Shown here one piece after another: positions 57,675-60,477 of a DNA stretch of 64,000 nt (its first letter is position 1; each line of letters opens with the position of its first letter). The notes under the pieces are model-generated. The model searched no databases. It was not told the origin of the DNA and was given only the letters and a program-made list of their open reading frames with translations. The stretch lies in assembly GCA_036676395.1 (NCBI GenBank), contig JAKFCY010000002.1, positions 1,440,001 through 1,504,000 of the forward strand. The letters run 5' to 3'. The DNA comes from Bdellovibrio sp. (lineage in GTDB: Bacteria > Bdellovibrionota > Bdellovibrionia > Bdellovibrionales > Bdellovibrionaceae). The translations under genes and the position numbers were made by a program.

Positions 57675-58091
57675 ATGAAACTAGTTTTAGCTCTATTAAT
57701 CATTGGCTCTTTATTTTCATGCTCTACTAGAACATGCAAACCCAATGAAAATCTTGAACAAACTCAAGATGCAGCTGTTCAAAAAAATCTACCTATAGCC
57801 GGCGAGACGAAAATTTCACCAACTACGAATATGACAAATCAAAATAAAAAACTAAAAGTTTACAAGCCAGATGGCTCTGTTCAATGCGAACCAGGCACCG
57901 GAACTTCAGCTGCTGAAATGGCAAAACAGCTTGGTGATATTAAAGTTTATTCTTCTGAAAACAAACATGATGGTTTAATCCGTATTCAAGTCTGCGGTCA
58001 AGCCACTGGCAATTGTAACGTTTTTGAAATTAATGAAGCTGATGCTGCCAAGGCCGAAAAGCTTGGTTTCAAAAAGTGGAAAAGTAACTAA
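57675..58091 (+). CDS. Small lipoprotein
   Basis: LFSC lipobox; DGSVQCE…QVCG..TG..NVFEI. Confidence 0.75.
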   Translation: MKLVLALLIIGSLFSCSTRTCKPNENLEQTQDAAVQKNLPIAGETKISPTTNMTNQNKKLKVYKPDGSVQCEPGTGTSAAEMAKQLGDIKVYSSENKHDGLIRIQVCGQATGNCNVFEINEADAAKAEKLGFKKWKSN

Positions 58092-58176
58092 CTAAGCCCG
58101 TTCGCCTAATAGCGTATCATTGTAAAACAATTAGACAGACAAGCCTTACCAGCTCGAATAGGGCGGGGATAGGGCT

Positions 58177-58191
58177 TGGCCCTGGTCTCGC
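58177..58191 (+). promoter_or_regulatory. Putative sigma54 promoter
   Basis: TGGCCCTGGTCTCGC (GG-N10-GC) about 40 bp upstream of the 58231 start. Confidence 0.5.
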
Positions 58192-58230
58192 TAATACTCC
58201 TATGGAATATCAATCCATATAGGAGCTATT

Positions 58231-59310
58231 ATGAAGTCTTCACGTTTATTAAAGGCCTTTACCCTAGGTTTTGCTTTAACTATGTCTTCTAATGCATTTG
58301 CAGGCATGGCTCAGCAATTGTTAACTGAAGATATTCAAGGCGCGATTAAGACTTTACCGCGTGAAACGCGTCTTTATCATTATTTTGGAATCAATCTTAA
58401 CGGTAACAAATTAGAAGATACGAATTTAAAAAAAGCTAAAAACCGCTATTCAATGGTGAATGAGCGCGTAAAATACGCGGCTGAAAGTTTTTGGAATTTA
58501 AATGACAACACCACCAGATTAGCTAATGCCGGTCTTGGTTTATACTTAGCGATCGATCCATATGCGTCTTCTCCGGCGGCGGCTCCAGATACAGGAGCTA
58601 ACTTTGGTTCTACAATGATTGAAGTGACTTTCAACGCCGGAACCAAATATTTAGATTTAATGAAAGATGTACCGTTACGCGAAGAAACAATCCAAGCTAT
58701 CGTTACTGAAACCGGAATGAGCCAGGCAGATGCGGCTAAACTTTTATTACCACGTAATGAAGTTAAACCAAACGGAGAAACGGGCGTGGCCCACAAAGGT
58801 TTTGCACGCGATACATTGCAATTTATGGCAGAAAAGCAAAACGTAAATTTTAGAAAATTAGTTTATGCAGTTTACTCACAAGCTGGAATTTCTTTGACTG
58901 AGTATGGCTGGCAAGCAGCGACGACTTCATTTTGTGGATCTACAAATCCTCATCGTTCAGCTTTAGTTTATATCGGCGGACCGCAAACACAAAATGCAAT
59001 CAAATCGGTAACAATGATTTACTGGGCGCCACATTCAGCAGAATTAGATGCTCAAGAATCTGAAGCTTTAGATCGCAATAAAAAACTTTATAGCGTGTTA
59101 CAGCCGTTACGTCCTTTAGAAAAAAGCTATCAGTCAATCGCAGACGATGCTTATAAAGCTAAAAAAGCTGGCGATAAAGCTACGGCAAAACAATTAAGTG
59201 ATCAGTTGCCAGATATTATTTCAAATATCACTGCAACTATTATTTCTACGTATCCAGATCAGGCTGAATTATTAGACCTTCGCTCAAAAACTTTTGAGTG
59301 TATGAAATAA
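58231..59310 (+). CDS. Secreted protein with putative ADP-ribosyltransferase-like fold
   Basis: Signal peptide (AFA); RLYHY, GLGLYLAIDP..S, FG…IEV…LDL pattern resembling H-Y-class ART folds (fold inferred). Confidence 0.55.
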   Translation: MKSSRLLKAFTLGFALTMSSNAFAGMAQQLLTEDIQGAIKTLPRETRLYHYFGINLNGNKLEDTNLKKAKNRYSMVNERVKYAAESFWNLNDNTTRLANAGLGLYLAIDPYASSPAAAPDTGANFGSTMIEVTFNAGTKYLDLMKDVPLREETIQAIVTETGMSQADAAKLLLPRNEVKPNGETGVAHKGFARDTLQFMAEKQNVNFRKLVYAVYSQAGISLTEYGWQAATTSFCGSTNPHRSALVYIGGPQTQNAIKSVTMIYWAPHSAELDAQESEALDRNKKLYSVLQPLRPLEKSYQSIADDAYKAKKAGDKATAKQLSDQLPDIISNITATIISTYPDQAELLDLRSKTFECMK

Positions 59311-59328
59311 TTCTTGAAGGATCCATTT

Positions 59329-60477
59329 GTGAAAACTCTTTTAGCCACGTTAATTTTATTTTTAGCAGCCGCACAAGCTTTTGCCTGTGATGCTGCTATT
59401 GAAAAATTCTCGCGCGATTGCGGGATGCAAGACCGTATGGCTAAAATTCGTGATGACTATGCGGCAATTGGTATCGATGTTGATGAAATCGGCGAGTACA
59501 AAGTATTACGTTTTATCGATCGTTCTTCTTGGGAAAAAGCTAAATCATTAAAAAAAGCCCCAACCGACATATATGATCCAGCTCCTGCCACTTGGCAAGT
59601 TTGGGAAAAAGGCATTGATTCACTATTTAAAGGCCAACAATTAAAAAATGTTTTATTCGGCCAAATGAATTTAGATCAAAATATTTTTTCACGCATTAAT
59701 ACTGTTTTATTAACTGATGGCATAACAAGTATTAAAGATAAAAACACTTCGCAAAGTAAAAAACCTGGTGAATTTCGTCATTATAGCGATGTTGGCGTTG
59801 GTTGGTGCGCGGGTAATGAAAATGCTAACAACTATCACCAAGGCATTCGCAAATCTGAAGATTCGATGGAACGTTTTCAAAAACGCTGGGAATCCTTAAT
59901 GGGTATTGAATTTCGTGAAATCGTTAAAAATGAAGATGGTCCGAATTGGCGCAGAGCTGATTTACAATCTGGCATGCATATATCTGAAGGAGCAACTTGC
60001 CGTGGTGGCAAAGGTGTTTTCATTGGCTACAGCGATTCTGGCCAAGTAGAAAGACAAATCGATTGGATCCGTATTTTTATTAAATCCAACTTACAAAGCT
60101 ATCAACGTGGCGAACCAAAGCTTGCGCCGGTCGAATTAGCCGCTGTTGTGCAAAAATGGTTTGTCAGCGTTCACCCTTTTGCTGACGGCAACGGCCGTAC
60201 TTCACGCGGTATACAAGAATTAATTATGGCTAATTTTGGGTTACCCTTTGTACCAGGTGGCGACTTACAAAACGATGCTATGGAAGACGTTGATGTTTAT
60301 ATCGAAAATACATATAAAAAGGTAGATTCAATGTTAACTGAACTTGAAATGTGCCTTAATAAACGTGGTGACCGGCTCATTCCAAGAGCTTGTCGCACTA
60401 TTGATGAATTAAATCATCATAGAATTTCTGATGACGAAGTCGAACAACCAGCTCAACAGATCCAAAACGGCGGTTAA
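59329..60477 (+). CDS. Secreted Fic-domain protein
   Basis: HPFADGNGRTSR canonical Fic motif; PGEFR; signal peptide from GTG 59329 behind GAAGGA. Confidence 0.88.
   Translation: MKTLLATLILFLAAAQAFACDAAIEKFSRDCGMQDRMAKIRDDYAAIGIDVDEIGEYKVLRFIDRSSWEKAKSLKKAPTDIYDPAPATWQVWEKGIDSLFKGQQLKNVLFGQMNLDQNIFSRINTVLLTDGITSIKDKNTSQSKKPGEFRHYSDVGVGWCAGNENANNYHQGIRKSEDSMERFQKRWESLMGIEFREIVKNEDGPNWRRADLQSGMHISEGATCRGGKGVFIGYSDSGQVERQIDWIRIFIKSNLQSYQRGEPKLAPVELAAVVQKWFVSVHPFADGNGRTSRGIQELIMANFGLPFVPGGDLQNDAMEDVDVYIENTYKKVDSMLTELEMCLNKRGDRLIPRACRTIDELNHHRISDDEVEQPAQQIQNGG

Follow-up and report, generated by a model that had tools for sequence, protein, structure and literature searches.

A recurring pairing of predicted exported ART-fold and Fic proteins in Bdellovibrionota as a candidate prey-directed accessory module

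NAD+ and ATP, the donors of ADP-ribosyltransferase (ART) fold enzymes and of Fic proteins, are cytoplasmic compounds. MbcT and NatT are NAD+ phosphorylases, whose reaction does not need a protein acceptor, PARP10 and Tpt1 are active ARTs without a catalytic Glu, and a canonical Fic motif with its last Arg is that of ATP-using AMPylases. Tre23 is an antibacterial ART of the H-Y clade (PMC8661411), Tox-ART-HYD2 is listed with the residues H, GFY and W (PMC3482391), and UMP and phosphocholine transferases carry similar Fic motifs (PMC4177925). The CMP domain of the phosphocholine transferase AnkX stacks the base on Tyr41 and forces a flipped binding of the donor (PMC8605245, PMC4177925), and in Legionella an ART, a phosphodiesterase and LnaB, a phosphoryl-AMPylase, are coupled through a single ADP-ribose mark (PMC11668277). 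Most of the tools known from Bdellovibrio-like predators are hydrolases: B. bacteriovorus releases nucleases with signal peptides into the bdelloplast (PMC7925074), and B. exovorus digests the cytoplasm of its prey in situ while the prey's inner membrane is rupturing (10.1101/2023.10.25.563945). Here, we describe two adjacent genes in a window of 64,000 nucleotides from Bdellovibrio sp. (contig JAKFCY010000002.1, positions 1,440,001 to 1,504,000), the first encoding a predicted exported ART-fold protein and the second a predicted exported Fic protein, whose partnership recurs across the phylum. A sequence-only reading had proposed that they form a co-regulated module exported in order to ADP-ribosylate (or consume NAD+) and AMPylate prey targets. 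Their features, in window positions and amino acids (aa), are as follows.

58231..59310, + strand: gene 1 (P0001), 359 aa, predicted exported ART-fold protein with a His-Tyr pocket without catalytic Glu and conserved C235-C357
58231..58302, + strand: predicted Sec signal peptide of gene 1 by a rule-based test, residues 1-24, ending in A-F-A, with A22/A24 conserved
58378..58380, + strand: His50, first ART motif (H 74, S 13, N 9, T 3 of 100 proteins), in the model range from 41 that matches PARP1 from 853
58531..58608, + strand: second ART motif, G101-x-G-x-Y105...S113...F125-G126, from the 100-protein alignment
58960..58962, + strand: Ala244, putative third catalytic position (A 87, S 10, G 3 of 100), first residue of model strand 244-247
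59329..60477, + strand: gene 2 (P0002), 382 aa from GTG, predicted exported Fic protein
59329..59385, + strand: predicted signal peptide of gene 2, residues 1-19, followed by the conserved Cys20
59494..59604, + strand: N-terminal subdomain of the Fic protein, with E56, Y57, R61, D64, R65, Y82, P84, P86, W89 and W92 invariant or nearly so
60172..60207, + strand: Fic catalytic motif HPFADGNGRTSR, residues 282-293, with H, F, D, G, N, G, R and the last R invariant in 106/106

Read from its GTG, which is preceded by GAAGGA, gene 2 follows the co-oriented gene 1 after exactly 18 bp (59311-59328), and the alternative TTG start at 59314 given by the open reading frame (ORF) finder would yield 387 aa. 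Neither between the genes nor directly after them does the ORF list of the window contain a small ORF of at least 70 aa. The spacing and the lack of an adjacent small antitoxin gene thus stand as they had been described. The same is true of the complete Fic motif, since the eight positions of HxFx(D/E)GNGRxxR are invariant in all 106 family members (109 matches in searches, about 105 of them full-length), the Pfam Fic model is matched above its cut-off (33.7 bits against 24, E 6.8e-8) and the predicted structure, with a predicted local distance difference test score (pLDDT) of 93.5, shows the helical Fic fold. All 23 chains with Z of at least 5 to this model are Fido proteins, the best being BT_2513 (Z 15.9, root-mean-square deviation (rmsd) 4.0, 231 aligned), tied with AnkX (Z 15.5) and FICD (Z 15.1). 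Transfer of AMP from ATP to protein, with which the motif is compatible, would be the most likely reaction of the gene 2 protein. AnkX gives the longest overlap, 243 residues from position 50 of the model and 15 of AnkX, so that the family-specific N-terminal subdomain lies in the part overlapping the N-terminus of AnkX, its CMP domain; by sequence this subdomain has no AnkX match (whole Fic profile against AnkX, E 0.31), and the searched text of PMC7228754 gave no match for an AnkX-type CMP domain. The best NCBIfam match of gene 2 is XopAC (NF041381), at 36.4 bits against a cut-off of 450 and over residues 207-315 only, a below-cut-off match common to 106/106 members that leaves gene 2 outside this family. 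The inhibitory motif (S/T)xxxE(G/N) is absent from gene 2 and occurs somewhere in 27/106 members, and the conserved E56 could be a non-standard equivalent of the inhibitory Glu. Cysteines are retained at C20 (103/106), C31 (104/106) and C342 and C355 (103-104/106), of which Cys20, as the first mature residue, could serve disulfide formation or lipidation. The genome of the window encodes three exported Fic paralogues, two of them without an ART-like neighbour (L002 754-3099 and L003 763-1926), and a single gene of the ART-like family; the paralogue of L002 is preceded by a sigma-54-type site of its own, and 6 bp after it comes a gene for an exported protein of 384 aa that has no Pfam match.

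The assignment of gene 1 draws on its AlphaFold2 model (pLDDT 95.1), whose five best matches among 48,161 chains are all ART/RES-fold toxins, led by MbcT (Z 5.9, rmsd 5.8, 143 aligned) and followed by NatT (Z 5.2), diphtheria toxin (5.0), Xre-RES (4.8) and ParT (4.8). PARP1 is matched with Z 4.4, and a second comparison gave similar results, its PARP1 match covering gene 1 residues 41-269 and PARP1 853-1009. The first eight rows of Foldseek include NatT, MbcT and the catalytic domain of diphtheria toxin, all with E above 0.001, and in a viral structure library ART-PolyVal proteins take ranks 4, 12 and 16. A compact domain of the fusion protein P0254, homologous to gene 1 by a profile match of 97.4% (E 1.3e-11), obtains Atlas scores of 0.90-0.91 against the Tox-ART-HYD1, PARP and exotoxin A clusters. 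Because these individually weak matches agree, gene 1 very probably has an ART fold, and the ART-like fold of the His-Tyr class suggested from sequence finds support in them; with fair support, gene 1 can be regarded as belonging to an unannotated family of this fold and class.

Searches yielded 26 close and 117 wider relatives of gene 1, and conservation was counted in a 100-protein alignment. In this alignment the motif G101-x-G103-x-Y105-x-A107-x-D109-P110-x-x-S113, F125-G126, E131 and L141-D-L143 is present and conserved (Y105 100, G126 100, G103 99, G101 98, F/Y125 97, S113 91), as are Y49, A107-x-D109-P110, Y225 and S243-A244, and C235 and C357 are each kept in 99/100. The His of strand 1 and the Tyr of strand 2 of H-Y-E ARTs thus have counterparts in H50 (74/100) and Y105 (100/100), in keeping with the motifs first pointed out around His50 and Tyr105. 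The third element, FG…IEV…LDL, fared differently: its residues are present and conserved, but it is not the third catalytic motif, which would map to Ala244. With the PARP residue numbering, His50 would fall on the first catalytic His of PARP1 and Ala244 on its catalytic Glu, a placement of the Glu site derived from the ends of the PARP1 match range. At this putative position of strand 5 the stand-alone members have Ala, Ser or Gly in 100/100 and the fused ART-Fic forms have Trp, the neighbours S243 and F/L245 are not acidic either, and E131 lies on another strand, in accordance with the earlier remark that no third catalytic Glu could be identified. A RES Pfam match was absent from 27/27 family members scanned. 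Of the two activities considered earlier, protein ADP-ribosylation or an NADase-type variant, the latter is favoured because the closest structural matches are RES-type toxins. Turnover of NAD+ by the gene 1 protein is somewhat more likely than not. Elsewhere in the same genome, the ART-like profile has a weak second match (G000:C2:294425-294748, E 0.0064, 108 aa).

The recurrence of the pair was examined in 401 genomes of the phylum Bdellovibrionota with an adjacency threshold of 5 kb. The ART-like profile matches 75 of these genomes (128 rows, or 126 copies once two split hits are merged) and the Fic profile 262, of whose 525 matches the best 150, merged to 138 copies, were listed and 375 weak ones were not; with five Fic candidates scored per genome, the number of ART-like copies with a Fic nearby is a lower bound. 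Within the Fic subfamily, defined by E up to 3.5e-20 and a frame below 600 aa (n=40 copies), 20/40 have an ART-like gene within 5 kb and 17/40 within 1.5 kb, as compared to 3/92 of the weaker Fic copies, these three also having signal-like starts, and 18/21 genomes with the subfamily have an ART-like match, as compared to 75/401 overall. In total, 23/138 listed Fic copies lie within 5 kb of an ART-like gene against 0.37 expected under uniform placement, a null that overstates significance, as exported accessory genes cluster. Uniform placement being a generous null, neighbours were therefore checked in loci fetched by the ART search alone, where Fic occurs in 7/20 genera and the next recurring family in 2; in all loci, partly chosen through Fic matches, Fic neighbours are found in 15/39 genera and five families. 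The 27 rows within 600 bp (two of which repeat a locus) comprise 12 ART->Fic, 12 Fic->ART, 2 convergent and 1 divergent arrangements, with gaps of few bases or overlaps in both orders, and independent collections provided further pairs at other sites (L155, L157).

Besides adjacency, the two domains are fused in 12 ORFs, which come from eight genomes belonging to seven genera and four families, with the ART-like domain on the N-terminal side. KYG65847.1, recorded as a Fic family protein of B. bacteriovorus, is one such fusion, and 6/8 of its further relatives show both motifs. Two ORFs of genome G270 appear to represent a fusion of reverse order, in which the Fic subfamily (E 2.7e-63 and 1.7e-53) is followed by an ART-like domain, although this is a weaker case, since that domain matches the fusion profile at 82% (E 1e-5; reversed control 2.5%) and the gene-1 profile at only 14%. 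The conservation of the pair, proposed for checking by synteny, is thus borne out over five families and in fusions. The designation as a module holds for the recurring pairing and not for an obligate association, as a listed Fic lies within 5 kb of 25/126 ART-like copies (20/75 genomes), a lower bound, and two of the three Fic paralogues of the window's genome stand alone. Five genomes of genus g9 have an ART-like gene with no member of the Fic subfamily among the scored candidates, and the ART-like members of B. bacteriovorus (cluster with CAE80589.1) are solitary. Because many ART-like copies and Fic paralogues stand without each other, the partners would be co-operating and not obligate, and an accessory module of Bdellovibrionota is the best reading of the association. 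In a tree of ART domains covering 76/96 groups (20 dropped, being without the cutting motif), the Fic-linked state needs at least 17 changes, which, given long branches, short flanks and Fic-seeded loci, is no count of independent gains. Among the loci no third conserved component extends beyond 3 genera, apart from generic ABC ATPases, and the neighbour census revealed no recurring small, immunity-like neighbour of ART-like genes.

Several further arrangements were observed at these loci. In L025, L090, L095 and L101, from three genera of the window's family, the ART-Fic pair is followed by a lipoprotein-like gene (420-440 aa) that belongs to no known family and is a candidate third component. 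Locus L128 (G378:C62, 2850-8256) holds five tandem ART-like paralogues, all with signal-like starts and with no Fic in the 12-kb contig, and similar arrays are seen in L091, L102 and L127. L125, L129, L097 and L140 are clusters of large exported proteins that match no known family; in some of these proteins repeats come after an ART-like domain at the N-terminus (P0255, 1272 aa), and a 620-720 aa family recurs beside such clusters in two genera. Fic or ART-like genes split by a stop or frame change occur in L096 (4984-6052), L090 (3604-4779), L041, L089 and L102, suggesting module turnover or assembly errors. Exported enzymes of phosphate chemistry, tyrosine-phosphatase-like, phosphodiesterase-like and exo/endo-phosphatase, adjoin the loci L089 (2085-2798), L091 (12519-13673) and L127 (814-2199).

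Export of both proteins was assessed by visual inspection and with a home-made rule instead of SignalP. A signal-like start is found in 92/100 ART-like and 100/106 Fic members, and in 8% and 4%, respectively, of internal segments of the same proteins; the rule is loose, as 884/1800 unfiltered genome ORFs also pass, and a stricter rule did not class gene 1 as signal-bearing. The conserved cysteine pairs of both proteins agree with export, and Sec export of both families is predicted with fair support, which upholds the earlier observation of Sec-type signal peptides and Cys residues in the two proteins. A search for type II secretion in the window's genome gave weak matches only, and 10/14 controls also matched.

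The reading preferred here, which we place just short of an even chance, is that of an exported, prey-directed two-enzyme module, in which nucleotidyl transfer is combined with the cleavage of NAD+ or with a transfer onto an acceptor phosphate or carboxylate, and for which we infer enzyme activity, NAD+ use, delivery to prey and prey targets. Both proteins would be made with Sec signals and would form their disulfides on folding outside the cytoplasm; as export itself would spare the producer, an antitoxin would not be needed. They would be released during feeding into a prey cell with a failing inner membrane, where access to prey NAD+ and ATP is plausible because predator nucleases reach the bdelloplast and the prey inner membrane ruptures. 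The ART-fold protein would bind prey NAD+ and, without a Glu, most likely carry out hydrolysis, phosphorolysis or ADP-ribose transfer to a phosphate or carboxylate acceptor, and the Fic protein would move a nucleotidyl group, most likely AMP from ATP, onto a prey target. Both enzymes would act in one process, yet each could work alone, and it is because of this common process that selection would keep pairing or fusing them. Complex prediction for the two mature proteins scored 0.00 twice, which counts neither way.

Several points weigh against this reading, besides the clustering of exported accessory genes. Unrelated helical hairpins score up to Z 4.7 against the gene 1 model, no structural match reaches Z 8 or a Foldseek E of 0.001, the Atlas score of gene 1 itself against exotoxin A is only 0.84, and sequence searches of gene 1 against Pfam, NCBIfam and PDB gave nothing meaningful. 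H50 is replaced in 26/100 family members, and because of this and of the missing third-site Glu some or all of them could be inactive. No listed Fic lies within 5 kb of 101/126 ART-like copies, no listed ART-like partner within that distance of 20/40 subfamily Fic copies, and the closest locus (L009/L150, 76% identical, same site) has no Fic, having lost or never gained it. Expression data for the genes were not found in the searches made, and predation by the source organism is deduced from its kin only.

Adjacency together with fusion in both directions is a strong pointer to shared or sequential chemistry, and fits a hand-over between the two enzymes better than two unrelated hits. In the furthest form of such coupling, the Glu-less ART-fold enzyme would convert prey NAD+ into ADP-ribose, either free or attached to a target. 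The Fic protein would then use this diphosphate as its donor, bound flipped as AnkX binds CDP-choline, so as to move phosphoribose (with release of AMP) or AMP onto a prey target; in a variant, the Fic protein would first set a phosphate or AMP mark, which the ART would then extend. The overlap of the Fic model with AnkX covers the subdomain carrying the near-invariant Y82, D64, R61 and R65, and precedents exist in the donor binding of the AnkX CMP domain (PMC8605245, PMC4177925) and in the ART/LnaB coupling of Legionella (PMC11668277). However, that subdomain has no AnkX match by sequence, the equivalence of Y82 and AnkX Tyr41 is putative, the Fic motif is fully canonical with the invariant last Arg of ATP-using AMPylases, and each partner often occurs alone, so that this coupling is considered unlikely, while first among the alternatives.

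Ranking after it, and likewise improbable, is a non-catalytic role of gene 1 as a sensor of NAD+ or ADP-ribose, an activator, a chaperone or a targeting subunit, which would switch the Fic protein on only upon meeting cytoplasm. Such a role would account for the lost Glu, for the many members, the Fic-linked L011, L025, L047, L058, L103, L104 and L105 among them, that have S, N, T or R in place of the His, and for a gene 2 without the (S/T)xxxE(G/N) inhibitory motif. It is harder to reconcile with ART-like genes that persist without the Fic subfamily, up to five in tandem (L128), with the retention of Y105, S113 and F/Y125 as an intact pocket and with the activity of Glu-less ARTs such as PARP10 and Tpt1. 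Lower again stands a producer-side role, whether in the producer's periplasm or on its surface (the Fic protein perhaps as a lipoprotein via Cys20) or in scavenging NAD+ and ATP into importable pieces. In its favour, Sec signals and disulfides show no more than passage of the inner membrane, 103/106 members have Cys20 as their first mature residue, and the pair is located after bamB and a lipoprotein gene; against this, the bamB site is variable, other pairs lie elsewhere, the periplasm is normally without ATP and NAD+, and the patchy spread, paralogue arrays and variable extra domains look like those of conflict genes, which makes this role doubtful indeed. That two exported accessory genes merely collect in the same variable regions, as solitary copies of both families and clusters of unrelated exported proteins (L097, L125, L129) might suggest, is very improbable, since no other family neighbours ART-like genes in more than 2/20 genera as compared to 7 for Fic, gaps of few bases or overlaps exist in both orders, and single-polypeptide fusions in four families largely refute chance clustering.

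Upstream of the pair, two further features may bear on its expression.

58120..58137, + strand: block with a TTGTAAA-CA core, 13 invariant columns in 7 aligned relatives
58177..58192, + strand: sigma-54-type -24/-12 site by pattern match, 38 nt before the ATG of gene 1, found in 7/7 aligned orthologous loci

The pattern used is the sigma-54 consensus, RpoN is encoded in the genome, and the upstream block is a possible enhancer-binding-protein site. A single match of this kind is not above chance (2 in the window against 3.75 expected); in the whole genome such sites lie within 120 nt upstream of 53/3060 genes against about 11 expected, one Fic paralogue included. The pair probably has its own promoter, and the claim of co-regulation is sustained as regards a probable shared promoter, co-transcription of the two genes being presumed. 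Sigma-54-type sites are about three times commoner before signal-like genes of this genome (29/886) than before others (24/2174), consistent with a possible RpoN regulon of exported proteins, and in L030 a 118-bp gap between the genes (2430-2545) holds a second such site before Fic. A riboswitch or leader RNA was rejected, as the fold z was -1.5 and the upstream region has no Rfam match, and, should transcription begin downstream of the sigma-54 site, a hairpin that covers the ribosome site would probably not form. Predictions of sigma-70 promoters and of terminators were at chance level. A soil metatranscriptome contains four short contigs, three of them on the two genes, 95-97% alike, which is not proof of transcription, and accessions of the B. 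bacteriovorus member were not found in papers or in 6/7 supplements of PMC12546842.

In its genome of 3.4 Mb, the pair lies downstream of bamB and a lipoprotein gene. Among 30 genus loci examined (from 35 genomes with a match), bamB is present in all, and an ART-like gene comes next after the lipoprotein in only 5, of which 4 have Fic; the bamB site is a variable slot, filled here by the ART-Fic pair. A role of the lipoprotein as immunity protein was rejected because it is tied to bamB (30/30) and precedes an ART-like gene in only 5/30. This small lipoprotein (57675-58091), with two cysteine pairs and no Pfam match, is present in 35/41 genus genomes and is a possible lineage-specific BAM partner. 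Recent horizontal transfer of the pair was rejected, its GC content of 0.37-0.41 being like that of the flanks. The nearest named loci for gene 1 are from Pseudobdellovibrio (63-65% identity in gene 1), and a Fic protein with 57% identity to gene 2 is found in Bdellovibrio sp. qaytius, which is described as epibiotic.

The ART-Fic partnership apparently represents an undescribed, recurring pairing of known folds. No description of ART or Fic effectors of Bdellovibrionota, or of ART-Fic fusions, was found in the literature searched (an ART natural-history review falling outside it), the words 'Fic', 'ribosyl' and 'toxin' are absent from the text of the comparative-genomics papers PMC11656739 (main text without supplements) and PMC11870529, and 'Bdellovibrio' is absent from the searched part of the polymorphic-toxin survey PMC3482391. 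Beyond digestion by hydrolases, the recurrence of a predicted exported ART-Fic module suggests that prey may also be handled by covalent modification or by destruction of NAD+, and it offers a direct way of testing how a predator attached from outside silences its prey. In addition, an unannotated family with a probable ART fold is named from 75/401 genomes, with the member CAE80589.1 in B. bacteriovorus, where genetics is possible. Should the unlikely transfer of ADP-ribose from the ART to Fic be true, it would be a phylum-wide module by which predators rewrite, and not merely digest, the prey cytoplasm. It would then provide the first case of a Fic protein supplied by an ART, and the first effectors of Bdellovibrio-like predators known to act by post-translational modification.

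As compared with described systems, gene 1 probably shares the ART core with the RES-domain toxins MbcT (6fkg), NatT (8qnl), ParT (6d0h) and Xre-RES (9r35), its best matches (Z 4.8-6.0). In contrast to their Arg-Glu-Ser and Xre/MbcA-type antitoxin, it has a His in the first motif and no antitoxin gene as neighbour, and it further differs by having no RES Pfam match and by its signal peptide, predicted disulfide and large helical inserts. With the H-Y-E ARTs diphtheria toxin, exotoxin A and PARP (Z 4.2-5.2), it has in common the His, GxGxY, Ser and second aromatic residue, but it has Ala (Trp in fused forms) at the putative Glu position and no translocation or receptor-binding domain, and its hosts are bacterial predators. 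Tox-ART-HYD1 (Tre23), reached with an Atlas score of 0.91 by the domain of the fused homologue, and Tox-ART-HYD2 are C-terminal tips of Rhs, type VI or type VII secretion system (T6SS/T7SS) carriers with immunity genes, whereas the gene 1 family is predicted to be Sec-exported, is stand-alone or N-terminal, has no immunity gene and has a Fic partner, so that the gene pair lacks both the carrier tip and the adjacent immunity gene of polymorphic toxins. The Fic AMPylases BT_2513 (3cuc), FICD, SoFic and IbpA share the canonical motif and fold with gene 2, which differs by a cleavable-looking signal peptide, paired cysteines and its own conserved N-terminal subdomain, and which, having neither a small adjacent ORF nor (S/T)xxxE(G/N), resembles neither Fic toxin-antitoxin nor autoinhibited forms. 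AnkX, structurally the longest overlap and without N-terminal sequence match, and the UMP transferase AvrAC/XopAC, the far below-cut-off NCBIfam match, are injected into eukaryotic cells and, unlike gene 2, have no ART partner. The Legionella SidE, LnaB and MavL cycle is a precedent for an ART and AMP-transferring enzymes acting on one ADP-ribose mark (PMC11668277), with the difference from the ART-Fic pair that in SidE the ART is joined to a phosphodiesterase, that LnaB does not belong to the Fic proteins and that the substrate is ubiquitin in a eukaryote.

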